Shown here: positions 4,160-42,960 of the stretch, piece by piece
Position numbering within the stretch: position 1 is the stretch's first letter
Layout: each line of letters opens with the position of its first letter
IMG/VR virus record: IMGVR_UViG_2648501299_000008
DNA from: a virus
Lineage: Duplodnaviria; Heunggongvirae; Uroviricota; Caudoviricetes
Length of the DNA stretch: 43,241 nt
Strand: one strand, 5' to 3'
Notes under the pieces: model-generated
Told to the model about the DNA's origin: nothing
Seen by the model: the letters and a program-made list of their open reading frames with translations, nothing else
Database searches by the model: none
Made by a program: the position numbers and the translations under genes

Positions 4160-5298
4160 ACAAAATTCACCCCGCCAAGCACCGGAATTTCGCCAACAGC
4201 AAAGGTGATATTGGCCGTCGGAGAGTTAAGAATATAGCCCGTCGTGCCGCTAACACCGCCGATACTCCCGTTAATATCAGAGAGGTAAACTTTCCCGGAA
4301 CCATCAGGGTTAGCTTCATCAAAAAACAGCGCCGTCAGCGCGTCTTTTATCCCCTGAACTGTGGTGCTGTCGGCATTTTTGATCCCAGAGATTTCAATAT
4401 TGATGACTTTCTTGATCGGGGAACATACGAAAACAATGGCAGTGTCTGTCTGCTGCGGATAGATGTGGTCGGCGACAGCGAGCTGGTCTCCGGTGGCTTT
4501 AACAGCCCCCCAGTCCTCAAGTTGGGATATTCCGTCGGTACCGACCGGAAACCCACCATTGTCATTCCGATCACACATGATATACACGCCAACGGTCCCG
4601 GCCCCGTTCAGACGCCGCTTTACCCACGCGCGGGTGACGCCCGAAACCTCAAGCGCCCATTTTTTATAATCGGCGTCGCTTCCACCCTGAGGCGGATTCT
4701 GCCATGCCAGCAAGCCACGACTGCGAAAATCCTCTTCCGTTTCAATATCGGCTCCGCCGGTCGCAGCGGACAGTAACGTTACCTGTGGATCCACGCCAGC
4801 AATATTCGCGTCCAGGGTCATTATGGTCCCGGCATCAGCGTTACCGCGCGCGCCTCCACCCGTTACATCACTGGTAATATCCGGCAGTATGGCCGTCACC
4901 GCGACGATACCAAATCCATCTGCCTGAATTTTAAGATCTGCATCCGTCCGGTACTGGTATCCGTCCCCGCGGTTAATGATCGAGCCAACAGGGATAATAC
5001 AGTCAACACTGCCACTAGCCTGTACCGCAGGCGACTTCGCCGCTGCAGCTGGTTTTCTGAATACCTGCTTAAGGGCCATCCACCCGGCGAGATACTCATC
5101 GGTAGAGGTAAACGGGTTTGTCTGCAGGGCAATATAGTCAAGGTAGGCGTAATGCAGATGCCCCATCCCCGCATCCATGTCAGCCAGTACCTTCAGGTTC
5201 GCGAAGCGCAGGAGCGCACCAACATCCTCAAGCTCCGCCTGCATAAATTTCCGGTTTCCGTCGCGGAGTTCGCTCAGCGTCGGTCGTTTAAACGGCAT
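4156..5298 (-). CDS. baseplate J-like protein (Mu gp47-like)
   Basis: 380 aa from the internal ATG at 5296-5298 (MPFKRPTLSELR...), which abuts the upstream stop at 5300-5302. The longer tool ORF overlaps the upstream gene. Confidence 0.75.
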   Translation of the reverse strand: MPFKRPTLSELRDGNRKFMQAELEDVGALLRFANLKVLADMDAGMGHLHYAYLDYIALQTNPFTSTDEYLAGWMALKQVFRKPAAAAKSPAVQASGSVDCIIPVGSIINRGDGYQYRTDADLKIQADGFGIVAVTAILPDITSDVTGGGARGNADAGTIMTLDANIAGVDPQVTLLSAATGGADIETEEDFRSRGLLAWQNPPQGGSDADYKKWALEVSGVTRAWVKRRLNGAGTVGVYIMCDRNDNGGFPVGTDGISQLEDWGAVKATGDQLAVADHIYPQQTDTAIVFVCSPIKKVINIEISGIKNADSTTVQGIKDALTALFFDEANPDGSGKVYLSDINGSIGGVSGTTGYILNSPTANITFAVGEIPVLGGVNFV

Positions 5299-7400: not shown

Positions 7401-8800
7401 TGCCTCAGTACCTTCATGGTTGTCGGCATAAACGCCGGATGCGGTACGCGCGCTTCCTGTACCAGTTCATCTGCACGGGTGGCATCCTGGTATAATCGGT
7501 TTGCCAGCGTCAGCGCCGGAAGCGGCTGAGCGGTAGTAACCTGCAGAAGCTCGCTCAGACCAGAAGCACGCTCACTCATCGTAGAAAGGAATGCCGATCT
7601 GACGGCGAGAAGCGCGTTATACATATCATCGTCTGCGCGGTCTCCAGCCAGAACCAGCGCCGTATCAAGTTGCACAGAAACTCGTTGAGTTAACTCTTCT
7701 GCCTCGTCTGTACTGGCTGGTCTGGAGTCCGCAGCGGCACTGGTCATGGCACCAGTACATAGCACAACAATCAGCGTGTTCATGGTCGCCGAAATCGCTT
7801 TGCTGCTGTCGGACTGCTGGTACTCCGTGCTGATTGAATTAGCCAGTTTTTCCAGCGCTGTGATTCGGTCATTAACGCTGCCGGCGCTGTTAAGAATTGC
7901 GTTTACCACGTCGGCGACGCCCTGGACAAACTCATCAGGTGTGTTGGAGCTGCTAAGCTGGCTCGACCTGTCGGTAACATTTTTCCGGTCCATTACCGAC
8001 TGGGCTGTTACCTTGTCAGCCAGTGCTCTCTCATCATCCACATCAGCAACTGACGATTTGCCAGCAACAGCAGAGGAACTACCGCCCACAGAGCCTTTAC
8101 TGTAACGTCCGTACCGGGTATTCCCGAACGTGGAGTTCAGGACATTGCTGAGATTCGTGACCTGACTGATGGTGCTGTCAACCATGTTAGTCCAGAACGT
8201 GACCGTGCCTCTGATGGTGTTTATAGCCTGTGTGACACCGCGGATTTCACTCTTAACTCTGGCAATCGTGCTCAGCACAGCAGTGCTGACCAGTTTCAGA
8301 TAGTTGGTTTTCACCGTGGCGCCTGCAACGGTACTGCCCGTGACAGCAAACACTTTAAGCCCTGATTCAATTGCCATCAGGGTAAATTCAAATACTCGCC
8401 CGTTCTCCATCGAACCGGAAATACGCAAACCATTCTCAGGGATGGAAACCGTTAATTCGCCCAGTGTCGGATGGACAAGCGTACCGCTACCTTTTTGTTC
8501 ACAGGCTTCAATCAGTGACTGGCGCTGCGTGATAGCATCGCCGCCGCCGTAAACCTGGCTGTTCTGGATCAAGAAACCGCGAATAACAAATCGCCGTGTT
8601 GCCCGCCCGATATCCTCTATCCAGGCTGTATCACGGTAGGGATATTCATGTACCGCCTGGCGTCGGCCGTGGCTCCCTTCCTCAGCAACAATTGCAAATG
8701 GCACACCTCTGAATGAGCTGGGCCGTAACTGCCCCTGCCAGTCATCGCTGGTATCTCCCCCCAAAAGAGAAGTTATTGCGTCCTGGATAATTGACGGCAT
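7397..8800 (-). CDS. Mu gp43-like DNA circulation protein
   Basis: About 467 aa from the ATG at 8798-8800, with GGAGG 4 nt upstream. Lies directly downstream of the tape measure region as in Mu-like tails. Confidence 0.65.
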   Translation of the reverse strand: MPSIIQDAITSLLGGDTSDDWQGQLRPSSFRGVPFAIVAEEGSHGRRQAVHEYPYRDTAWIEDIGRATRRFVIRGFLIQNSQVYGGGDAITQRQSLIEACEQKGSGTLVHPTLGELTVSIPENGLRISGSMENGRVFEFTLMAIESGLKVFAVTGSTVAGATVKTNYLKLVSTAVLSTIARVKSEIRGVTQAINTIRGTVTFWTNMVDSTISQVTNLSNVLNSTFGNTRYGRYSKGSVGGSSSAVAGKSSVADVDDERALADKVTAQSVMDRKNVTDRSSQLSSSNTPDEFVQGVADVVNAILNSAGSVNDRITALEKLANSISTEYQQSDSSKAISATMNTLIVVLCTGAMTSAAADSRPASTDEAEELTQRVSVQLDTALVLAGDRADDDMYNALLAVRSAFLSTMSERASGLSELLQVTTAQPLPALTLANRLYQDATRADELVQEARVPHPAFMPTTMKVLRQ

Positions 8801-25154: not shown

Positions 25155-25772
25155 TCATACCAGTGCGGCTTTTGCTTTGGCGTAGCGTGCACGACGGTCG
25201 TTAATGCCGTTCTGTCCACCATTGATGATCTGGGTGATGCGAACCAGATCGCCGGAATAGCTCAGGCATCCGCTGGTGGCGTAGAACCATGCAGCTGAAC
25301 GTGCCGCGTTGATATCCTTTTCCAGCAACTCAGGATTACTGACTAAATCCAGTTTTAATCCCGTTCCGCAGCGGCGGTAATTATCAAGACCGGTAATCTG
25401 AATCAGCCCACGGCCACGATATTTCCACCCATCGCCTGATGCTTTGTTACCGAGGCGATTGCTGTACACCAGATTTGCAATGGCTGGCTGATTGGCTACG
25501 TGCCCTTTTTCTTTGTCACGCCCAAGCATATATGCCTGATAGTTCGTAATGCGGCGTCCAAATGTGGTCAGCAGAGCGGCTGGGGTGTAGTTGAAGCTCT
25601 CCACCAGCGCAGAGAATCCCGCTGATTCATGTCCTGACTGAGCAATAAACATTGCCTGGTCTTCAGGCTTAACAATGCCGAACTCTTTCATTGCCGCGTC
25701 AATGTGCGGAAACCAGCGCGTAGCTAACCCGGCGCTTACACCAGCCGCCTGTTGAAATTGTGATTGGTTCAT
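25155..25772 (-). CDS. endolysin, glycoside hydrolase family 19 (chitinase-like lysozyme)
   Basis: 205 aa; lysozyme/chitinase-like sequence in the lysis cassette position. Start overlaps the preceding membrane protein stop (TAATG). Confidence 0.8.
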   Translation of the reverse strand: MNQSQFQQAAGVSAGLATRWFPHIDAAMKEFGIVKPEDQAMFIAQSGHESAGFSALVESFNYTPAALLTTFGRRITNYQAYMLGRDKEKGHVANQPAIANLVYSNRLGNKASGDGWKYRGRGLIQITGLDNYRRCGTGLKLDLVSNPELLEKDINAARSAAWFYATSGCLSYSGDLVRITQIINGGQNGINDRRARYAKAKAALV

Positions 25773-26529: not shown

Positions 26530-27429
26530 TTAGCGAATATTCCACATCATCGTGCTGCCATTATGATTTTCAATAATTTTCGCAGCAGGACTCGTACCAA
26601 ATGAATGCATGTAGCAATGATGTATAGTCAGCACAAGATCCTGCAGAGTTTGGTCGCTCTCCAGCTCCATAATGTTCAAACCAATGCTTTGCGCTTTATC
26701 CAGATGAATATGTCTAGCATGCGCATAGGTTGTATGATGATTGTTTAGCTCATCACAAATTCGCTTAGCCTTATCTTGAGCGTTAGCATGACCTGCAAAC
26801 ATACCAGTACACAGCCATTTTTGTACTATTTCATTAGCCCAAACAATAGCCTTTTCACATTCACCAATGAGAGTCGGGTTTAGCTTTTGAAGAGTAAATT
26901 GCCACCATTGGATCGCTGCAGCATTTTCAGAAATCTCTTTCTTAGCTCGCTCATACTCTTCTATGATCGCATGAGATGATAAACCACCAAGCTGCGGATC
27001 AATTGGCCCCAAATTTGACTGTTTGCCCAATACAATCTGTTCGGCACAGCAAGCCAACATGGTCCCACAACTCATTGAGATCATAGGAACAATTGCCCGG
27101 ATATTGGTCCCAAATTTTGAACGAAGATAATGACCAATAGATTCCAATGCTGCAATATCTCCCCCTGGGGTATGAAGCAAGATATCCAGCCCTAATGACG
27201 TGTCTAAGCCGTTAATGGCTGACATAAGACCATTTTTATCGTCATCTGACATTTGTATTAAATGCTGCAACCCAGGCCCCCCCTTCTGGAGGAAGCCTGA
27301 GTAATATGAAATTACGTTTCGGCCTGTATGCTTCGACAACTCTCGTAAGTACTTGTGGCGAACCTCATCCGCTGGTGTACGTTGAGCAATAGTACCCATC
27401 TCGCCCAACACGTCTATCCAATTTGGCAT
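26530..27429 (-). CDS. ClpP-fold serine protease (SDH/S49-like family), accessory gene
   Basis: 299 aa with LLHTPGGDIAALE and MISMSCGTMLACCAEQ segments resembling the ClpP/S49 fold. Region looks AT-rich by eye. Lies between the Q region and the holin. Confidence 0.55.
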   Translation of the reverse strand: MPNWIDVLGEMGTIAQRTPADEVRHKYLRELSKHTGRNVISYYSGFLQKGGPGLQHLIQMSDDDKNGLMSAINGLDTSLGLDILLHTPGGDIAALESIGHYLRSKFGTNIRAIVPMISMSCGTMLACCAEQIVLGKQSNLGPIDPQLGGLSSHAIIEEYERAKKEISENAAAIQWWQFTLQKLNPTLIGECEKAIVWANEIVQKWLCTGMFAGHANAQDKAKRICDELNNHHTTYAHARHIHLDKAQSIGLNIMELESDQTLQDLVLTIHHCYMHSFGTSPAAKIIENHNGSTMMWNIR

Positions 27430-30890: not shown

Positions 30891-31072
30891 TAATCTGCTG
30901 TTCTCCCTCTTTTTTTCCTCGTTTCGTAAGGAGACCTGTAACCATCTACAGGGGCCACATCATCAGCCTCAAAGCGCTTAGCGTTTGCTATATCGGATTG
31001 AAGCCAGTGTTTTTTATATCGCTTCCTCGCCGCTTTGTATTTTTCGGCAGGTGTCATTTCTTCGTTTGACAT
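30890..31072 (-). CDS. hypothetical small basic protein (first gene of the operon)
   Basis: 60 aa from the ATG at 31070-31072 with AAGGGGA Shine-Dalgarno; preceded by a TATAAT element at 31100-31105. Confidence 0.4.
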
Positions 31073-31086
31073 AAAAAATCCCCTTG

Positions 31087-31106
31087 AGTTATGGAGGGGA
31101 TTATAG
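31087..31106 (-). promoter_or_regulatory. candidate -10 element and leader (TATAATCCCCTCC) for the small-gene operon
   Basis: Minus-strand TATAAT followed by CCCCTCC...AAGGGGA leader. A near-identical promoter-leader precedes the secreted-protein gene at 31569. Confidence 0.35.
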
Positions 31107-31227
31107 GTCAGGCCGCGATTTGTTTCGACTGGCATAGTTCCGGCAGGTTAGCCCTCACCAGTGCTACAGCGAACGGGGGCACAGCCAAAAATAAAAACCG
31201 CCTAACCTGGTTGAAATTCGTTCTATT

Positions 31228-31569
31228 TTATTTGCAGGTAAATTGCACTACATCACCCTGAGACATTTGAAAGAATCGGTAATCACCATCTCCACGTCTT
31301 TGTATAATATTGCCCTCTTTAGTCGCACCAGATGGGTATGTCTTTCCTTCCGGTTTTTCTGGCCTAATCTTGCTTGTGGTGTAAGAAATGGTCCCAAAGT
31401 TAACTGTTATTGAATTTCCGATGTCAGTTATATTTGCCTTTACTTCGCCGGATTTTACTTCATTTGAGGTCATACTCCTTGCTATTCCAGAGCATACATA
31501 TTCCTTTGCTTCAACGGCATGGGGCATAAGAAAGCCAATTCCTAACAACGTGATCGCCAAATATTTCAC
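31228..31569 (-). CDS. secreted small protein, MliC/PliC-like lysozyme-inhibitor candidate
   Basis: 113 aa from GTG at 31567-31569 with AAGGAG Shine-Dalgarno. Predicted signal peptide MKYLAITLLGIGFLMPHAVEA|KEYVC. Mature protein has EY.C near the N-terminus, a central YPSGATKEG segment and a C-terminal Cys, reminiscent of the MliC/PliC family (from memory). Confidence 0.45.
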   Translation of the reverse strand: MKYLAITLLGIGFLMPHAVEAKEYVCSGIARSMTSNEVKSGEVKANITDIGNSITVNFGTISYTTSKIRPEKPEGKTYPSGATKEGNIIQRRGDGDYRFFQMSQGDVVQFTCK

Positions 31570-31597
31570 TTTATCTTCTCCTTGATGAGTCCCCCTC

Positions 31598-31620
31598 GAT
31601 ACTTTGGGAGGGATTATACA
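31598..31620 (-). promoter_or_regulatory. candidate promoter (TGTATAAT) and leader for the secreted-protein gene
   Basis: Minus-strand TGTATAAT (31613-31620) followed by CCCTCCC...GAGGGGGA, in which the C-rich stretch can pair with the Shine-Dalgarno region. Confidence 0.35.
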
Positions 31621-31731
31621 AAAGAAAAGTGTGGTCATGGCTATTTTTGGTAATGTTATTCGATGATAATTCACTTTATTTTTTAAATCATAATGCTATA
31701 TTTCTTTCACCCCTTGCTTGCAAGGTACAAC

Positions 31732-31823
31732 GGAGGGTTGGCCGAGTGGTTGATGGCACCTCACTGATAATGAGGCGTACGGGCTATAAACCCGTACCGC
31801 GGGTTCGAACCCCGCACCCTATT
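31732..31823 (+). tRNA. tRNA-like element, class-II (long variable arm) architecture, anticodon GAU; probably degenerate
   Basis: Hand fold: acceptor GGAGGGT/ACCCTAT (5 Watson-Crick pairs, one G-U, one G-A mismatch); 3-bp D stem GCC/GGC with GAGTGGTTGAT loop; anticodon stem CCTCA/TGAGG with loop CTGATAA; 23-nt variable arm with 7-bp stem; T arm GCGGG-TTCGAAC-CCCGC; no encoded CCA. Confidence 0.45.
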
Positions 31824-31824
31824 T

Positions 31825-31860
31825 AAGGGGTCGACAAATGTCGGCCCCTTCTTCGTTTTA
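31825..31860 (+). terminator. hairpin/terminator immediately 3' of the tRNA-like element
   Basis: 10-bp stem AAGGGGTCGA...TCGGCCCCTT followed by CTTCGTTTTA. Confidence 0.4.
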
Positions 31861-31911
31861 TACATCAAATTTGGCTCTACCCGCACCGCATTCCTACCTG
31901 CTAAAACTTCA

Positions 31912-32043
31912 TCAATCACCTGCCATTGCGTAGCCGAGATTACCGCCGTCGCTTTGTGCTGCTGCTTTTATGAGTATTTCCTGTATCTCGTGCAGACGAT
32001 CGAGTGATACAGGACCGTTCACCGGGTGGTTGTTAATTGTCAT
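31912..32043 (-). CDS. small hypothetical protein downstream of the methylase-like gene
   Basis: 43-aa ORF whose ATG overlaps the stop of the restored methylase frame (TAACCATG). Confidence 0.3.
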   Translation of the reverse strand: MTINNHPVNGPVSLDRLHEIQEILIKAAAQSDGGNLGYAMAGD

Positions 32044-32045
32044 GG

Positions 32046-32523
32046 TTAGTCCTTCACAAAGATAATCCAATGGGTTTTGTCGTTCTTCCCAGTACGCTGA
32101 CCAATTGCAGGTTTCACGTCAGTAAGAGCTAAAATCTGGCTAACCGGGATCTGCGTTTCGTTCCATTTGAAAATAAGCACGCCGCGCGGCCACAGCACCC
32201 GAAACGCTTCTTTGAAACCGGCGCGTAAGTCAGAGCGCCACGTTTTTTTTGTTCAGTCGCCCGTATTTTTTACCCATCCAGGCAGACTGGCCCACGCGCT
32301 CGAGGTGCGGCGGGTCAAACACCACAACCGGAAAAGAAGAATCAGCGAACGGCAGTGAACGAAAGTCTGAAATCAGGTCTGGACTGATAACCAGGCGGCG
32401 ACCGTCGCACAGTTCGTGCTCTTCGGCGCGAATATCAGTGAACACGGCGCGGGTGTCCTGCTTGTTGAACCAGAACATGCGGGAGCCGCAGCACATATCA
32501 AGAATCGTCGTGTTGTCGGTCAT
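32046..32523 (-). pseudogene. DNA adenine-methyltransferase-like gene interrupted by a frameshift in an A8 homopolymer
   Basis: N-terminal frame (ATG 32521-32523) encodes ILDMCCGS and VVVFDPPH motifs, then stops at 32230 just after the A8 run (T8 on plus strand, 32243-32250). The adjacent frame continues ...TWRSDLRAGFKEAFRVLWPRGVLIFKWNE... to a stop at 32046. Removing one A gives a continuous ORF of about 159 aa. Confidence 0.55.
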
Positions 32524-32831
32524 ACTGATGCTCTCCCGTAAAACGCCAGTACACGCTGCATAGCCGGACTTGTGCGGCATACGGATGTGACCATGTTTTT
32601 TCTCACTTTCGATTTGAGTTGCTTGATATTCTGCTCGCCACCGGGCTGAAGCGAATAGACCGGGCGATGCGGCTCGCCAGTGCGGATTACTACCGTTTTG
32701 CGTACTAGGTGAAGCAGCAGGTTGTGTGCCTTCTTGCAGTCGCATCCCAGCAGGCTCTGAACCTGACGAGGGGTTATGGTCTGGTTAACCCGAAGGAAAT
32801 CGACGATTGCCCACAGTGATTTGCTTGCCAT
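32520..32831 (-). CDS. hypothetical protein (possible winged-helix DNA-binding protein) downstream of the DnaC-like gene
   Basis: 103 aa with GAGGG Shine-Dalgarno; coupled to the flanking genes. Confidence 0.4.
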   Translation of the reverse strand: MASKSLWAIVDFLRVNQTITPRQVQSLLGCDCKKAHNLLLHLVRKTVVIRTGEPHRPVYSLQPGGEQNIKQLKSKVRKNMVTSVCRTSPAMQRVLAFYGRASV

Positions 32832-35647: not shown

Positions 35648-36331
35648 ATGAGTTTTTCTGAGCGATTAGATCGCGCAATGAATGAGGCGGGTTATACACA
35701 GGGCAAGCTAGCTAAGGCAGTTGGCATGGCACAGTCAAGTGTTAACAAGCTGCTAAATGGTGCATCAAGCTCAAGAAAAACGGTCGAGATAGCTTCTGTT
35801 CTCAATGTTCGCCCTGAATGGCTTTCCACGGGATCCGGACCGATGCGTAACGATGGCCAGCTACCGCCTCCCATTACCGCGACAAAAAAAGACTCAAACA
35901 TATTCAGAGTTGACGTACTTGACCTGACATTTAGCGCGGGGCCAGGTTCTTTCATGATTTCTGAGTTTGTTGAGGTTCTACACGCCATTGAGTTCACAAC
36001 CGAACACGCTCGTTCACTCTTCGGAAATCGTTCTCAGGAAGACGTAAAAGTAATGACGGTCGATGGCGACAGCATGTGTCCAACTATACAGTCTGGTGAC
36101 AGATTGTTTTTCGATATTTCTGTAAGAAACTTCAAGGTCGACGGTGTTTATGCGTTCGTTTTCGGACAACATTTCCATGTGAAGCGCTTGCAGATGCAGG
36201 GCGATAGGTTGGCAGTTTTGTCTGATAACTCAGCTTATGAGAAGTGGTACATTAACGAAGGTAATCAGGATCAACTCTACGTAATGGGTAAGGCATTGAT
36301 TCATGAATCAATAAAGTATAACCGATTGTAA
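35648..36331 (+). CDS. cI-type repressor (HTH plus LexA-like S24 autopeptidase domain)
   Basis: 227 aa; N-terminal HTH (GYTQGKLAKAVGMAQSSVNKLLNG) and C-terminal S24 domain with the GDSM serine motif and VKRL lysine. GGGGG Shine-Dalgarno. Confidence 0.85.
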   Translation: MSFSERLDRAMNEAGYTQGKLAKAVGMAQSSVNKLLNGASSSRKTVEIASVLNVRPEWLSTGSGPMRNDGQLPPPITATKKDSNIFRVDVLDLTFSAGPGSFMISEFVEVLHAIEFTTEHARSLFGNRSQEDVKVMTVDGDSMCPTIQSGDRLFFDISVRNFKVDGVYAFVFGQHFHVKRLQMQGDRLAVLSDNSAYEKWYINEGNQDQLYVMGKALIHESIKYNRL

Positions 36332-36375
36332 AACTGTACTTTTTATCTACTTTGGCCCAGAAAAGGATCATAATT

Positions 36376-36738
36376 ATGAAATCGGAATTATTTCATAGTG
36401 AAGCAAACTCCGAGATTATCACAGCGGATGAGTTCATTGATTTCATAAATTCATTCAAAAAACCAATAACTTGCCAAATCTGCGGGAACCAGTCATGGTC
36501 TGTAGTTGGTGCCTTTGATCTTGATGTAGAAGAAAATCAGCCAAAACATCATGTGATCGAAACACTTAGTTATGCACAATACAAACCTGATACTGATAGT
36601 GCTGTGACATATCCTGGCGGTATGCCACTATTTCGAATCACGTGTGATCACTGCGCACATGTACTGCTTTTTTCTTATAAAAAAGCCAGGACACTGATTA
36701 ATAAAAGAAAAGAAGATCAAGGAGAGGATGGGAAGTGA
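36376..36738 (+). CDS. zinc-ribbon-like protein of unknown function, co-oriented with cI
   Basis: 120 aa from the ATG at 36376 with AAAAGGA Shine-Dalgarno. Two Cys pairs CQIC...CDHC. Lies 45 nt downstream of the cI stop. Confidence 0.5.
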   Translation: MKSELFHSEANSEIITADEFIDFINSFKKPITCQICGNQSWSVVGAFDLDVEENQPKHHVIETLSYAQYKPDTDSAVTYPGGMPLFRITCDHCAHVLLFSYKKARTLINKRKEDQGEDGK

Positions 36739-37367
36739 TGGGCCCATCTCTCAAAGCTGTCCCAGACTGCGGTTCTGGCATTGATAAAGATGACCTGTAC
36801 CCCAATGTTCAAAACAGACTACGCGTCGATAAAGAAGAAATGTATACTAACTTTATCAAATCAACAGATGAAGCTAATGAAACTGATGGGGGAAATGAAA
36901 TGTCATCAGTTAGCCGTGAAGAAATGCAAGCACTTCTAGCTGCCAATAAGGCGGAGATGGAGTCCATTGCATCTTCGATTAGAGCTGAAATGGCTTTGTC
37001 ACGCGAGAATATGAACGTTCAGCTGGCATCGCTCAATTCATCTATTAGCTCTATTTCTTCTAAAATTGAAGGGAAAATGGATAGCGTTGATGGGGATGTA
37101 AAAGCCATCAATGGCAAATTCGAAGGTATACAAGGGCAAATTACAGGAATAAACACTGCGATTGGCGGTATTCAATCAGGTATTTCCACTAGGCTTGCTA
37201 TTTTTGGCGTTATCATTGCGGTTGTCGTTGCATTACCTAGTCTTGTTTCTGCCTTGAAGAGTGATCCGCCCGTAGTTCAACCAGTAGCGCAGCAACCTGT
37301 TATCATCCAATTACCTCAAGAACCAACTACTCCACGAGTACTTCACCAACAGGAAAAATCAAAGTAA
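36738..37367 (+). CDS. coiled-coil protein with C-terminal transmembrane anchor, unknown function
   Basis: About 209 aa (ATG 36738, or GTG 36735) overlapping the previous stop. Long heptad-like helical region, then hydrophobic LAIFGVIIAVVVALPSLVSAL and a Pro/Gln-rich tail. Confidence 0.5.
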   Translation: MGPSLKAVPDCGSGIDKDDLYPNVQNRLRVDKEEMYTNFIKSTDEANETDGGNEMSSVSREEMQALLAANKAEMESIASSIRAEMALSRENMNVQLASLNSSISSISSKIEGKMDSVDGDVKAINGKFEGIQGQITGINTAIGGIQSGISTRLAIFGVIIAVVVALPSLVSALKSDPPVVQPVAQQPVIIQLPQEPTTPRVLHQQEKSK

Positions 37368-38446: not shown

Positions 38447-41400
38447 ATGGAATTCTTTAATGTGGTTAAAGCCACTCAGAAATCCGGAAAGCAAGATGCA
38501 GTGGTCTGGTTCACTGCTAAAACCGAGGCTCGCGCCAATCTGATGCTGGATGTTGCGCTGGAAGATGCAGGTATCGAAACAGGTCGGGGTAAGGACTACG
38601 CCAAACCGATTCGCACTGATTTCCCAGTTGTCGACGGCCTGCCGAAAGAAGGTGAAGTTGATTTTACCTGGTGTGATCGCTACGAGCTTCAGGACGATGG
38701 GCGCACCTGGCTGCCAAAAGCCGCTGGTGTGTCTACTGGTTCCGTTTACGCCCCCTCCACACCTACTCCGACCGTAATCGTTGAAGATGCGACTGCGTCC
38801 GAAATTGTCCCGGTTGAAAACCGTACTCCAGCGGTCCGCTTTGCCGTCCATCTGATGAACGATAAATACCAAACCCACGTCACTAAAGAGCAGCAGTTGG
38901 CTGCCAGCGAAATGTCACTGGATGAAGGCAATACATATCTCCATAGCCTGCTTGTGGCAAGGAACGATGTGCCCGCGACCGCCAAACTCAGCCTGAATGC
39001 TGAGTGGAAAATGATTCGGGCGGTTAAGGACATTTTCACACCAGACGAAGAGCACGAACCAAGATTGATCGCTGCATTCATGTCTGACTGGGTGAACACC
39101 GATGCCGGTGACCGCAATCAACTGGTAGAAGACTGGCGCAGTGGTAAGTTGCAGTTGCTCAAAACTGAAACCAGCAACGCTGCTGACGTTACAACGGGTC
39201 AAGATCTCACTGTTGAGGACGGTATCCAGACCGACGAGAACGGCCGGGCAGAAGGTGGCGTCGTTGATGGTGAAGTCGATACCGAAGAGCAATCCCAGCA
39301 GACACAGCAACCGAACCTGATCGTTGTTGCCACCCTGCCATTCCGCCAGCGCGTACTGGCTCAGTTCATCGGTGATGGTGAATATCTCTATCACATCGAC
39401 GCAGGGCAGAAAAATGAGATTGTCCGCCTTGAGATGGACACCGATGACGCGTACGTCCAGAACCTGCTGCTGGCAGCTGAGAATGTGGAAGCATTCAAAA
39501 AAGCCATTGAGCACGATATTCATAAAGTCGTGAATGCCGTTAAGAAAGTCTTCCCTGTCGATGGAAAAATCCCTGAACTCGCAACCTTAATCCAGTTTTT
39601 GAAATTGTGGTTCGCTACAGATCACATCGACCGCGGTATCCTCGTTCGCGAATGGGCCGCCGGTAATCGCATCAGTAGTGTGCAGCGTACTGATTCCGGC
39701 ACTAATGCCGACGGCGGTTACGTCACTGACCGTGGACCTGACGCACACCACACACTGGACACTCTCGATTTAGAGATTGCGTGTGCCCTTCTGCCTATGG
39801 ACTTCAACCACTTCGAGATCCCGGGCAGCATTCTTCGTCGCGCTAAAGAAATCGTGACCAAAAAAGAAGAACCATGGAAATCATGGAGCAACATCCTGCG
39901 CAATCAGCCAGGCGTTCTGGGTGTTAACCGCACGGCTATTTTTAACCTGGTACGTATCGCACCGGAAAATATTCATTTAACTCCTGTCGCTCACCTGGAA
40001 TTTGTTAACCAGACCATGACAGCCGCGTTCAATTCCGCGGTCGAGTTATTGCCGTTGCATGAGGCTGAACCCGCAGCACAGGAAATTCCCCAACCTGAAG
40101 GTAAGGAGTCTCCGCGCAAATCCTTCTGCACTCACGAAGAGAACCTGCAACGCGTGCGTGAAGAAGGAGCACGCCGCCGCGCAGAGGAAGCGGCAGCACA
40201 ACCGCAGAAAGTCGAACAAGAACTGGTTAAAAATGTCGGCAACGGAATATTCGACGTTACGGCTTTGCTGCAGAACTCAGCAACTCATGGCACGAAAAAG
40301 GCTACGGAGACCACCAGCAATGTGCAGGTTCAAGAAACTGTCAGTGATGAAAAACAAGCTGGTGATGAAGTACAGCCAGGCGAAAGCAGTCTGGAGTCTG
40401 GTGAAGAGTCAGATACCAGCCAGAAGGACGATGTAAACCAGAATACGGATTCTGTCGCCAAAAATAGCGATTCTGTAAGCCAAACCGAACCAGTTGCAGC
40501 ACAAACCGAGCCAGAAGCGCAATCTGACGAACCAGCTGTTGTTTATCCCGCTTATTTCGAGCCAGGCCGCTATGAAGGGCTGCCAAACGAGGTTTACCAC
40601 GCCGCCAACGGCATCAGCTCAACCCAGGTGAAAGATGCGCGCGTTTCGCTGATGTACTTCAATGCGCGCCACGTAGAGAAAACCATCGTCAAAGAGCGCT
40701 CAGCGGTGCTGGACATGGGCTACTTGGTGCATGCGCTGGCGTTGCAGCCTGAACTACTGGACGCAGAATTCAGCGTTGAACCGGTGATCCCTGAAGGCGC
40801 ATTCACAACGGCCGCGACCCTGCGCGCCTTTATCGATGAGCACAATGCCAGCCTGCCGGCGCTGCTGTCTGCCGACGACATCAAGGTGTTACTGGAAGAG
40901 TACAACGCCACCCTGCCGCCGCAGGTTCCGCTTGGCGCTAACCTGGAAGAAACGGCACAGAACTATATGGCGCTGCCAGCTGACTTCCAGCGTATTGATG
41001 GTGACCAGAAGCAGACGGCGACGGCAATGAAGGCATGCATTAAAGAGTACAACGCCACCCTGCCGCCGCCGGTTAAAACCAGCGGCAGCCGTGACGCGCT
41101 GCTGGAGCAGTTGGCAATCATCAACCCTGACCTTGTGGCTCAGGAAGCACAGAAACCGGCACCACTGAAAGTGTCCGGTACCAAAGCAGACATGATCCAG
41201 GCCGTGAAGGCAGTCAAACCAGATGCCGTATTTGCCGACGAACTGCTGGATGCCTGGCGCGATAACCCGGAAGGAAAAGTGCTGGTCACCCGCCAGCAGC
41301 TGAGCACCGCGCTGAATATTCAAAAAGCGCTTCTGGCACACCCGACCGCCGGCATGCTGCTGACCCACCCTAGCCGAGCCGTTGAGGTGAGCTACTTTGG

Positions 41401-41836
41401 TTTTGACGAGGAGACGGGCTTGGAAGTTCGTGTGCGCCCTGACCTTGAGATCGACCTGGATGGCGTGCGTATAGGTGCAGACCTGAAAACCATCAGCATG
41501 TGGAATGTTAAGCAGGAAAGCCTGCGCGCCAGGCTACACCGGGAAATTATTGAACGTGATTATCACCTGAGCGCGGCTATGTACTGCGAAACCGCAGCGC
41601 TGGATCAGTTCTTCTGGATTTTCGTCAACAAAGACGAGAACTACCACTGGATCGCCATCATCGAGGCATCCGCTGAACTACTGGAGCTGGGTATGCTCGA
41701 GTACCGCAAAGCGATGCGCAATATCGCAACCGGATTCGACACAGGTGAATGGCCAGCGCCAATCACTGCTGACTACACCGACGAACTGAACGACTTCGAC
41801 CTGCGCCGCCTTGAAGCGCTGCGTACTCAGGCATAA
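38447..41836 (+). CDS. recE: RecE-like exonuclease with long N-terminal extension
   Basis: 1129 aa. The C-terminal roughly 300 aa looks like a PD-(D/E)xK / YqaJ-type exonuclease domain by eye. The N-terminal roughly 800 aa is acidic and low-complexity in parts. Followed directly by recT. Confidence 0.7.
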   Translation: MEFFNVVKATQKSGKQDAVVWFTAKTEARANLMLDVALEDAGIETGRGKDYAKPIRTDFPVVDGLPKEGEVDFTWCDRYELQDDGRTWLPKAAGVSTGSVYAPSTPTPTVIVEDATASEIVPVENRTPAVRFAVHLMNDKYQTHVTKEQQLAASEMSLDEGNTYLHSLLVARNDVPATAKLSLNAEWKMIRAVKDIFTPDEEHEPRLIAAFMSDWVNTDAGDRNQLVEDWRSGKLQLLKTETSNAADVTTGQDLTVEDGIQTDENGRAEGGVVDGEVDTEEQSQQTQQPNLIVVATLPFRQRVLAQFIGDGEYLYHIDAGQKNEIVRLEMDTDDAYVQNLLLAAENVEAFKKAIEHDIHKVVNAVKKVFPVDGKIPELATLIQFLKLWFATDHIDRGILVREWAAGNRISSVQRTDSGTNADGGYVTDRGPDAHHTLDTLDLEIACALLPMDFNHFEIPGSILRRAKEIVTKKEEPWKSWSNILRNQPGVLGVNRTAIFNLVRIAPENIHLTPVAHLEFVNQTMTAAFNSAVELLPLHEAEPAAQEIPQPEGKESPRKSFCTHEENLQRVREEGARRRAEEAAAQPQKVEQELVKNVGNGIFDVTALLQNSATHGTKKATETTSNVQVQETVSDEKQAGDEVQPGESSLESGEESDTSQKDDVNQNTDSVAKNSDSVSQTEPVAAQTEPEAQSDEPAVVYPAYFEPGRYEGLPNEVYHAANGISSTQVKDARVSLMYFNARHVEKTIVKERSAVLDMGYLVHALALQPELLDAEFSVEPVIPEGAFTTAATLRAFIDEHNASLPALLSADDIKVLLEEYNATLPPQVPLGANLEETAQNYMALPADFQRIDGDQKQTATAMKACIKEYNATLPPPVKTSGSRDALLEQLAIINPDLVAQEAQKPAPLKVSGTKADMIQAVKAVKPDAVFADELLDAWRDNPEGKVLVTRQQLSTALNIQKALLAHPTAGMLLTHPSRAVEVSYFGFDEETGLEVRVRPDLEIDLDGVRIGADLKTISMWNVKQESLRARLHREIIERDYHLSAAMYCETAALDQFFWIFVNKDENYHWIAIIEASAELLELGMLEYRKAMRNIATGFDTGEWPAPITADYTDELNDFDLRRLEALRTQA

Positions 41837-41841
41837 GGGGA

Positions 41842-42960
41842 ATGATGATGGAAAACACGAATATCGTAACCGCTGAACAGCAGACTCCAAACACGATCTC
41901 AGCCAGCAATGCCATTTTCAACGTGCAGGCTTTAACCCAGCTTCAGTCTGTCGCCGGGTTGATGGCACAGGCAGCCGTAACGGTGCCTGAGCACCTCCGC
42001 GGCAATCCGGCAGACTGCATGGCCATCATCATGCAGGCGATGCAGTGGGGTATGAACCCTTACGCCGTGGCGCAAAAGACGCACCTGGTTAACGGTGTCC
42101 TGGGATACGAAGCGCAACTGGTTAATGCGGTGATCTCCAGCTCAAACGCCATCGTTGGCCGCTTTCACTATGAGTACGAGGGCGACTGGTCGAAATGTGC
42201 CAGCAGCCGCGAGATAACCGTTAAAAAGCCTGCGAAAGGTGGCGGGACGTACGACAAGAAAGAAATGGTACGCGGTTGGGAAAGTGCTGATGAACAAGGA
42301 CTGTCGGTACGGGTAGGTGCCGTTATTCGCGGTGAAAGTGATATCACCTGGGGAGAGCCTGTTTTCCTCTCCAGCGTAATCACACGTAATTCTCCACTTT
42401 GGGTATCAAACCCGAAACAGCAGATCGCTTATCTGGCACTCAAATACTGGGCGCGCCTATATTGCCCTGCAGTTGTTCTTGGTGTGTACACCCCTGATGA
42501 GATTGAACAGCGCACAGAAAAAGAGATCAACCCAACGCCGCAACGCGTTAGCCTGGCTGATATCTCAGGTGACACCGTCACAACCACGCAAAGCGCACAG
42601 GAATCGTCGGTAAATGTCGACTCTCTTGCCGATGATTTCCGCGAACGCATCGAATCTGCTCAGGACGTGGATAGCGCCAAATCGCTGCGTGCCGACATTG
42701 AAACGGCGAAAGCTACGCTGGGATCCGCACTATTCACCGAGCTGAAAAACAAAGCCGTAAAGCGTTATTACCTAGTGGATGCACGCAACAAGGTTGAGGA
42801 GGCTATTAAATCCCTGCCCCAGCCCGACGAGCCGCATGCAGCCGAACGGTTCGCTGAAGCCGAGCGCATGCTTGCATCTTCAAAGCGTCACTTAGGCGAT
42901 GAACTGCACGATCAATTCAGCATCACCCTGGCGGATATGAAACCGGAATACGTGGCCTGA
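41842..42960 (+). CDS. recT: RecT-family single-strand annealing protein
   Basis: 372 aa; N-terminal two-thirds resemble RecT, with a roughly 100-aa C-terminal extension. Start 6 nt after the recE stop. Confidence 0.75.
   Translation: MMMENTNIVTAEQQTPNTISASNAIFNVQALTQLQSVAGLMAQAAVTVPEHLRGNPADCMAIIMQAMQWGMNPYAVAQKTHLVNGVLGYEAQLVNAVISSSNAIVGRFHYEYEGDWSKCASSREITVKKPAKGGGTYDKKEMVRGWESADEQGLSVRVGAVIRGESDITWGEPVFLSSVITRNSPLWVSNPKQQIAYLALKYWARLYCPAVVLGVYTPDEIEQRTEKEINPTPQRVSLADISGDTVTTTQSAQESSVNVDSLADDFRERIESAQDVDSAKSLRADIETAKATLGSALFTELKNKAVKRYYLVDARNKVEEAIKSLPQPDEPHAAERFAEAERMLASSKRHLGDELHDQFSITLADMKPEYVA

Follow-up and report, generated by a model that had tools for sequence, protein, structure and literature searches.

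The stretch of DNA analysed here (the window) comprises 43,241 nucleotides of a Caudoviricetes virus, IMG/VR record IMGVR_UViG_2648501299_000008, and is a Rac/lambda-like prophage. A small gene on the minus strand of its nin region (31228..31569), co-oriented with the early-right (replication, nin and Q) genes, encodes a protein of 113 residues. It is strongly supported that this is a mobile accessory ('moron') gene of foreign base composition, and the best reading of its product is that it founds a small, new orphan family with a known fold class and a familiar genetic role. The explanation preferred overall, with a probability of about 0.35, is that the gene encodes an exported beta-barrel that binds or inhibits another protein, a peptidoglycan hydrolase being the most likely class of target. 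An earlier note on this DNA had proposed a secreted lysozyme inhibitor of the MliC/PliC kind, transcribed from its own promoter inside the early region. The location in the early-right region and the orientation were confirmed, and the features that had been noticed in the protein itself are present, but membership of the MliC/PliC family is not supported. The gene and its parts are as follows.

31228..31569, minus strand: coding sequence (WP_039022277.1), with a ratio of nonsynonymous to synonymous substitution rates (dN/dS) of 0.09-0.20 against four homologues and the start codon of the homologues
31578..31581, minus strand: Shine-Dalgarno sequence GGAG, 8 nt ahead of the GTG, invariant in five aligned loci
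31507..31569, minus strand: signal peptide, residues 1-21 (MKYLAITLLGIGFLMPHAVEA, then KEY), cleavage predicted before K22
31231..31506, minus strand: mature domain of 92 residues, predicted to be an eight-stranded antiparallel beta-barrel
31300..31347, minus strand: most conserved segment of the family, residues 75-90, G-K-x-[YF]-P-[SA]-G-x-T-[KS]-E-G-N-I-I-Q in an 11-member alignment
31613..31620, minus strand: extended -10 promoter-like element TGTATAAT, 43 nt before the start codon, with no recognisable -35
31593..31612, minus strand: inverted repeat CCCTC-N10-GAGGG, between the -10 element and the Shine-Dalgarno sequence
31070..31105, minus strand: hairpin AAUCCCCU-N10-AGGGGAUU followed by U6, fold z-score -2.7

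The open reading frame (ORF) obtained by a mechanical call spans 31228..31674 and would encode 148 residues, but alignments of homologues reach only to the GTG at 31569. The start was therefore placed at that codon, giving 113 residues and a stop. A RefSeq coding sequence annotated as 'hypothetical protein' (WP_039022277.1) in Escherichia coli 2018-10-1CC has exactly these boundaries, and the chromosome of that strain is identical to the window (30900..32300) over all 1401 bases searched. The 113-residue protein described in the earlier note is thus confirmed by its GTG start, by the homologue alignment and by the RefSeq annotation. Selection on the gene and conservation of its leader were examined in the window together with four IMG/VR loci (L004, L005, L006 and L007) whose proteins are 71-75% identical in amino-acid sequence. 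Every one of the ten pairwise comparisons gave a dN/dS of 0.09-0.20, at a synonymous divergence (dS) of approximately 0.8-1.6; the target is therefore a real protein-coding gene, and the substitution pattern indicates strong purifying selection on the protein. The reading frame was intact in all copies found.

The leader alignment of the same five loci bears on the claim that the gene has its own promoter. TGTATAATCC is invariant in all five while the surrounding non-coding sequence diverges, TGTATAAT stands at a fixed distance from the gene in each, and similarity between the loci collapses just upstream of the TG of the element. A two-hexamer promoter scan missed TGTATAAT because the -35 hexamer is absent. 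The element fits the extended -10 class and may have promoter activity; the own promoter of the earlier note survives as a candidate promoter, present in the window and invariant across five diverged loci. Between this element and the ribosome-binding site, the leader of L006 reads CCAGT...ACTGG at the site of the inverted repeat, which is a compensatory change, and the significance of the repeat is uncertain because its folding energy is no better than that of shuffled sequence.

The sole terminator-like structure 3' of the gene is the hairpin at 31070..31105, approximately 125 nt past the stop codon and just ahead of the ATG of the next gene. A terminator immediately after the stop was considered and rejected, its fold being no better than those of shuffled sequences (z +1.3). 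In another locus, L002, a clean terminator follows the shared segment. A short upstream ORF (31570..31619, minus strand) was also observed in the leader: it starts within the TGTATAAT element (with TTG in the window and ATG in L004 to L007), encodes MYNPSQSIEGDSSRRR and ends in TAA, with a single A separating it from the GTG (TAA-A-GTG). The peptides encoded in the window, L004 and L005 resemble one another, and those of L006 and L007 diverge in both sequence and length; this ORF could be a translational-coupling leader or a coincidence.

The N-terminus of the protein was judged by a rule-based reading of the sequence rather than by a trained predictor. It has lysine in the n-region, a 13-residue hydrophobic core, valine at -3 and alanine at -1, and the same n/h/c layout is common to all 11 family members, with the alanine at -1 invariant. 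The signal residues have a predicted local distance difference test score (pLDDT) below 55 in both structure models. The cleavable signal peptide of the earlier note thus stands as a predicted one, apparently of the signal peptidase I type (as in PliC) and without a lipobox, with cleavage probably after Ala21. The two cysteines that had been reported at opposite ends of the protein are likewise there: C26 (31492..31494, on predicted strand 1) and C112 (31234..31236, on predicted strand 8) lie near the two ends of the mature chain, are the only cysteines, and are both invariant in the family alignment. The mature protein is hydrophilic (grand average of hydropathy, GRAVY, -0.66) and basic (isoelectric point, pI, 9.0), and its C-terminal end reads ...FTCK.

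An AlphaFold2 model made from a seven-sequence alignment has an overall pLDDT of 84, which rises above 90 in the mature domain. Strands are predicted at residues 22-32, 38-49, 54-57, 62-65, 80-83, 88-93, 96-101 and 106-112, and strands 4 and 5 are joined by a 14-residue, proline-rich loop, S66-KIRPEKPEGKTY-P79. A second, independent AlphaFold model, of a family member at 46% identity, has the same topology and a pLDDT of 84, with the region between strands 4 and 6 largely irregular. The barrel is taken to be soluble rather than an outer-membrane one because four of its strands are only 4-6 residues long. Across the family, whose members are 45-78% identical, 23 residues are invariant, and these cluster in G75-Q90. 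The segment, a candidate binding surface, runs from the end of the strand 4/5 loop through strand 5 and the 5/6 turn into strand 6.

In a list of similar folds, the barrel of Cap15 scored 8.1, Brucella PliC 7.6, PhiA 6.9, Salmonella PliC and Neisseria ACP 6.6 each, and E. coli MliC (YdhA) 5.5, at sequence identities of 4-9%. The lysozyme-inhibitor group dominates the top of this list among natural soluble barrels of similar size. No sequence homology of the target protein to ACP, PhiA or Cap15 was detectable, and the closest matches in BFVD were uncharacterised phage proteins and jumbo-phage lipoproteins. The structural match is one of fold class and not of family: the predicted barrel has eight strands like that of MliC/PliC, whose fold the earlier note had invoked. 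Cap15 (7N34), a CBASS effector, is a cytoplasmic nucleotide receptor with N-terminal transmembrane helices, encoded in a CD-NTase operon, whereas the target protein has a predicted signal peptide and paired cysteines, and its gene has nin-region neighbours, no CBASS neighbours and no PADLOC match.

The case that the gene is mobile cargo rests on composition, distribution and context. The GC content over the gene is 36-41%, against 53-55% in the flanks, and the gene is present in some and absent from other related phages; both are properties of morons. An identical 393-bp segment, which includes the gene at 100% identity, was found in 11 of the 5426 complete E. coli genomes, distributed over two or more prophage backbones. 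Translated searches (tblastn) found no copy of the gene on plasmids in PLSDB and no match in 50,697 GenBank phage records. In Klebsiella prophages a homologue occupies the same nin slot, just ahead of the DNA_pol3_theta and NinB genes; among the distant members, those of L008 and L009 lie beside an AlpA-like gene and an integrase, and that of L016 lies 1.3 kb from an integrase. Every informative context in the family is thus a temperate phage or an integrase neighbour.

The family is small. A first search gave 6 clusters, an exhaustive profile search of 1.84 billion representatives added 3 true relatives, and a profile search of 5.8 billion sequences gave 11 clusters in all, from Escherichia, Klebsiella, Citrobacter and metagenomes. 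Four further hits of the exhaustive search (P0010 to P0013) were rejected as relatives, since they are long proteins matched in many stretches, P0010 and P0013 being repetitive; a Butyrivibrio match in one-genome-per-species contigs (36% identity over 39 residues) was weak and partial and was treated as spurious. No member scanned matched a family in Pfam, NCBIfam, PHROGs or PADLOC, and literature searches found no description of this family or of the accession, nor of a prophage-borne MliC-like inhibitor among the papers listed for prophage lysozyme inhibitors.

The closest genetic parallels are the lambdoid morons bor and lom, which the target gene resembles in its insertion between conserved phage genes, its deviating GC content, its promoter-like element, its variable presence among related phages and the envelope as the destination of its product. 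It differs from them in occupying another slot (in the nin region or by an integrase), in encoding a predicted soluble barrel rather than a lipoprotein or outer-membrane protein, and in lacking a clear terminator immediately after the gene.

A mechanism consistent with these observations can be proposed. The gene moves between temperate-phage backbones together with its extended -10 element TGTATAAT and its GGAG-GTG start, and it would be transcribed in the lysogen from its own promoter and also by read-through of the early operon. The product would be exported by Sec and cleaved after Ala21, and a C26-C112 disulfide made by DsbA would staple the barrel in the periplasm. There it would act as a soluble binder or inhibitor that blocks a partner protein, with G75-Q90, the end of loop 4 and the following hairpin, as its working surface; the working loop would correspond topologically to the loop that MliC/PliC insert into the lysozyme cleft. 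Candidate targets would be animal lysozyme entering the periplasm and, where a phage superinfects the cell, the muramidase or endolysin of that phage. The protein would then be a functional analogue of MliC, PliC and ACP, following the logic of T4 Spackle, and not a member of the MliC/PliC family.

Precedents exist for both the architecture and the logic. MliC/PliC, ACP and PhiA share an eight-stranded barrel in which a disulfide links strand 1 to strand 8, and loop 4 fills the active site of lysozyme (PMC5507604, PMC8334348). Of these, ACP inhibits lysozyme even though neither of the motifs characteristic of MliC/PliC is present and its loop 4 is longer (PMC5507604); an inhibitory analogue without the motifs is therefore conceivable. 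The target protein differs from ACP (6GQ4) in that no sequence similarity is detectable (no chain in the PDB at E<=10) and in that ACP is a chromosomally encoded surface adhesin. T4 Spackle is a periplasmic phage protein that inhibits the tail lysozyme gp5 of T4 for superinfection exclusion (PMC7677548). It supplies the functional logic for one branch of the hypothesis; it is the product of an early gene of a lytic phage, and no sequence similarity to the target protein was found. The fold of Spackle is helical and unrelated to the barrel predicted here.

Peptidoglycan hydrolases were ranked first among possible targets because of the architecture, the conserved surface at the position of the inhibitor loop, and these precedents; by analogy they are the single likeliest class, if only tentatively so. 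A more specific version is doubtful, namely that the family is an unrecognised one of phage-borne periplasmic peptidoglycan-hydrolase inhibitors, with the MliC/PliC/ACP architecture either convergent or diverged beyond recognition and with its own loop, GKxYPSGxTKEGNIIQ. Such inhibitors would block either host lysozyme, as a lysogenic conversion, or the wall-piercing enzymes or endolysins of competing phages, giving exclusion or protection from lysis from without.

Several observations weigh against a peptidoglycan-hydrolase inhibitor. On the side of sequence, neither the window protein nor any of 9 members matched PF09864 in Pfam at E<=10, and the family profile, searched against all PDB sequences, found no lysozyme inhibitor and indeed no chain at E<=10. 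The probability assigned by hhalign was 0.1-2% when the family was compared with an alignment of enterobacterial MliC and with the same alignment widened with the P. aeruginosa, Brucella and Salmonella proteins (Pa-MliC, Ba-PliC and St-PliC). No defence-system or phage-family profile matched either. On the side of structure, a Foldseek search against the PDB returned nothing below an E value of 0.02 and no MliC/PliC in the top 50, and NspA, OmpW, PagL, NHBA and several de novo designed barrels scored 6.3-7.1 in the same fold list as the inhibitors. The fold alone does not predict activity, because PhiA has the fold and the disulfide and inhibited neither SagA nor hen lysozyme in vitro (PMC8334348). 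The pI of 9.0 disfavours binding of the very basic c-type lysozymes, and the tyrosine and serine contacts missing from the sequence argue against c-type lysozyme specifically. No association with a type of endolysin was seen, the window carrying a GH19 enzyme and the Klebsiella prophages GH24 enzymes. Promoter activity, export and the disulfide are, moreover, predicted features, and the binding partner is a proposed one.

The search results just described tell most directly on the possibility that the protein is a true, divergent member of MliC/PliC (PF09864) that inhibits c-type lysozyme in the canonical key-lock manner through S80-G81-A82 and T83-K84-x-G86. The MliC/PliC family (PF09864, COG3895; E. 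coli MliC/YdhA, 2F09; P. aeruginosa MliC, 3F6Z; Salmonella PliC, 3OE3; Brucella PliC, 4MIR) is among the nearest known comparisons, and the resemblance is genuine at the level of architecture: predicted export to the periplasm by a PliC-like signal, a mature chain of approximately 90 residues, eight antiparallel strands (by prediction), cysteines on strands 1 and 8, and a conserved segment centred on loop 4 and the following hairpin. The two short segments on which the earlier note relied are also present, EY.C as E23-Y24-V25-C26 and SGA as S80-G81-A82, and together with the C-terminal cysteine they mirror E. coli MliC (LEYQC...SASGARY...NNC). However, genuine members from E. coli to Brucella readily detect one another: as a positive control, a narrow MliC profile picked up P. 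aeruginosa MliC (4e-11), Brucella PliC (1e-7) and Salmonella PliC (0.39), and genuine MliCs carry PF09864. Against this, the absence of any Pfam match at E<=10 and an hhalign probability of at most approximately 2%, in which the sole locally aligned stretch is shifted by one hairpin and out of register with the strand order, speak for a family without a detectable hidden Markov model or profile-profile relation to MliC/PliC.

The motifs lead to the same result. Those that are functional in MliC/PliC are SxSGAxY (SGxxY) on loop 4 and YxxxTKG on strand 6, the SGxxY motif touching the catalytic glutamate of lysozyme (PMC5507604, PMC8334348). At the corresponding position the target protein reads Y78-P-S80-G-A-T-K84, with no serine at -2 and no tyrosine at +4; the SGA at the end of loop 4 does lie at a place topologically equivalent to the MliC motif site, a real coincidence of position. 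YxxxTKG is absent as well: predicted strand 6 is I-I-Q-R-R-G, preceded by N87, and T83-K84-E-G86 lies in the strand 5/6 turn, which places 'TKEG' one hairpin earlier than the motif at the end of strand 6 of MliC/PliC. Relatives of the target replace Y24 by K or H, S80 by A, A82 by V, S or I, and K84 by S; QGD (Q104-G-D106) becomes FRE, LKN or MRD, and within the SGATK stretch only G81 and T83 are invariant. The residues noticed in the earlier note are thus not, on this alignment, those preserved by selection. Loop 4 of the target is also approximately 8 residues longer than in MliC/PliC and proline-rich, with a motif of its own (GKx[YF]P[SA]GxT[KS]EGNIIQ), and the gene is phage-borne and rare whereas MliC/PliC genes are chromosomal and of a housekeeping type. 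Of the resemblance, the predicted barrel, the predicted export and the placement of the cysteines on strands 1 and 8 stand, and the family membership and the motifs fall. Membership is therefore very improbable, and lysozyme inhibition is a reasonable hypothesis by analogy, not an assignment based on family.

A different periplasmic task for the same gene and fold is, over all such tasks taken together, about as likely as an action on peptidoglycan hydrolases. The protein might exclude superinfecting phages by binding part of the envelope or a protein that the incoming phage delivers, it might inhibit a protease through the exposed Pro/Lys-rich loop P70-E-K-P-E-G-K76, or it might bind small ligands. 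Cargo genes of prophages that have promoters of their own frequently act in exclusion or fitness, the nearest matches in BFVD are the phage proteins and jumbo-phage lipoproteins already mentioned, and the invariant loop is unlike the SGxxY motif. That lysozyme inhibition does not follow from this fold is shown by PhiA, which has the disulfide, is without SGxxY, and in vitro failed to bind either its proposed target SagA or hen lysozyme (PMC8334348). The target differs from Brucella PhiA (7DPY) in that PhiA is tetrameric and genetically linked to SagA, an autolysin of a type IV secretion system. The analysis points to no specific alternative target, however, and no profile of a known exclusion or defence protein matched. 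The protein lacks the lipobox or membrane anchor that most receptor-blocking exclusion proteins (such as Llp and Cor) have, and a filled barrel of 92 residues would probably leave little room for a ligand cavity.

Two further readings are very improbable indeed. An eight-stranded outer-membrane barrel like the Lom/Ail/OmpX or OmpW proteins, a kind that other lambdoid morons encode, fits poorly with a mature chain of just 92 residues in which four strands are 4-6 residues long, with a GRAVY of -0.66, with an end (...FTCK) that has no terminal aromatic beta-signal, with paired cysteines on the closing strands and with the lack of a Pfam match to outer-membrane proteins. The other is that the ORF is decaying or non-functional and that the upstream TGTATAAT is merely a scar of a recombination junction. 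In its favour, a copy of TATAATCCC(C)TCC stands at either end of a 515-bp unit, remnants of the 3' end of another gene flank the unit in an order that differs by locus, and the family is very rare. Decay is nevertheless difficult to reconcile with strong purifying selection at saturated synonymous divergence, with 23 invariant residues across members that are 45-78% identical, with a confident fold prediction from a very shallow alignment and with a frame that is intact in every copy. The exported barrel that binds or inhibits a partner, most likely a peptidoglycan hydrolase, remains the preferred explanation.

If muramidase inhibition were true, the family would be a phage-mobilised addition to the proteinaceous inhibitors Ivy, MliC/PliC, PliG, PliI and ACP, and temperate phages could spread lysozyme tolerance or anti-phage protection of the wall among Enterobacteriaceae as a unit of approximately 0.4 kb complete with its promoter. 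It would also be the second barrel, after ACP, to inhibit without the canonical motif, and would help to define the contribution of the fold. If no muramidase is inhibited, the protein would be one of many small secreted cargo proteins of prophages. Its rarity (0.2% of complete E. coli genomes) limits the practical impact in either case.

The surroundings of the gene in the window, in the order in which they are met from the recombination genes onward, are as follows.

38447..42960, plus strand: RecE/RecT
35648..36331, plus strand: LexA-family repressor
After the repressor: a Cro-like regulator, YdaT, a DnaT-like protein and a DnaC-like ATPase
Next: a frameshifted methyltransferase gene, a truncated ORF, the diverging tRNA (31732..31823, plus strand) and the target gene (31228..31569, minus strand)
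31732..31823, plus strand: tRNA-like gene (anticodon GAU, long variable arm), diverging from the target gene
31112..32056: 945-bp cassette (target gene, diverging odd tRNA and flanking remnants), 97% identical to an E. coli prophage
Past the target gene: a 60-residue ORF, a homologue of DNA polymerase III theta, DUF1367, YbcO, RusA, YlcG and Q
26530..27429, minus strand: SDH-type protease
After the protease: holins and a GH19 endolysin (25155..25772, minus strand)

The other prophage with the 945-bp cassette has different neighbours, with replication genes of the lambda O/P type and DinI. The tRNA in the cassette is annotated as tRNA-Ile(GAU) and has a class II body of 92 nt with a 21-nt variable arm, G2-A71 and G1-U72 in the acceptor stem and U as the discriminator; it is accompanied by a terminator at 31825..31850 and a -10-like element, TGCTATATT. 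Its nearest matches in phage records are annotated as tRNA-Ser. One possibility is a tRNA of the Ser type reading Ile codons, which could mis-assign Ser and Ile; the other is that the tRNA has decayed. All 11 E. coli genomes with the target gene have it, and no others do. A link between tRNA and protein as a property of the family was rejected, the tRNA being absent beside all homologues outside E. coli, and the tRNA is probably not part of the function of the protein.

Traces of rearrangement surround the gene. The repeat TATAATCCC(C)TCC is found twice on the minus strand (31097..31105 and 31610..31618; 0.28 expected by chance), bracketing the 515-bp unit, and a remnant of the 3' end of another gene (...PPFAVALVRANLPELCQ...) lies at 31112..31190, between the target stop and the second copy of the repeat. 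The PPFAVALVRANLPELCQ remnant is also found upstream of the target gene in L004 and in two copies in L005. The repeats and the remnant look like a module-junction or recombination scar of nin-region mosaicism. On the other side of the tRNA, a 52-residue ORF (31912..32070, minus strand) is the N-terminal stump of a 186-residue protein that is intact in L005 (1744..2304), and the tRNA segment seems to have taken the place of the 3' part of the gene for this protein. The adjacent gene for a class I S-adenosylmethionine-dependent methyltransferase (32230..32745, minus strand) is frameshifted in the window and intact (166 residues) in L005.

Elsewhere in the prophage, RecE (38447..41836, plus strand) is a protein of 1129 residues with an Exonuc_VIII N-terminal region and a C-terminal PDDEXK domain (DUF3799), and is followed by RecT; the approximately 850 residues between its two domains had no Pfam match. 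Two ORFs of 128 and 210 residues (36352..37367, plus strand) lie directly 3' of the LexA-family repressor and in the same orientation, without a significant match in Pfam or PADLOC. The rexAB genes of lambda have this same position, just downstream of the repressor, and the two ORFs are candidates for functions expressed in the lysogen. The SDH-type, ClpP-like serine protease (PF01972; 26530..27429, minus strand) is an unusual occupant of the interval between the Q antiterminator and the holins, the late-operon leader slot in which Stx phages carry their toxin genes. Finally, L006 encodes in the same nin-region neighbourhood a 125-residue protein with a signal peptide and two cysteines (7814..8191, minus strand), and L005 encodes, just before NinB, a 98-residue protein (4575..4871, plus strand) whose N-terminus, MKIITLFMIFFLTSC..., looks like a lipoprotein signal; the nin slot seems to collect envelope-targeted cargo.

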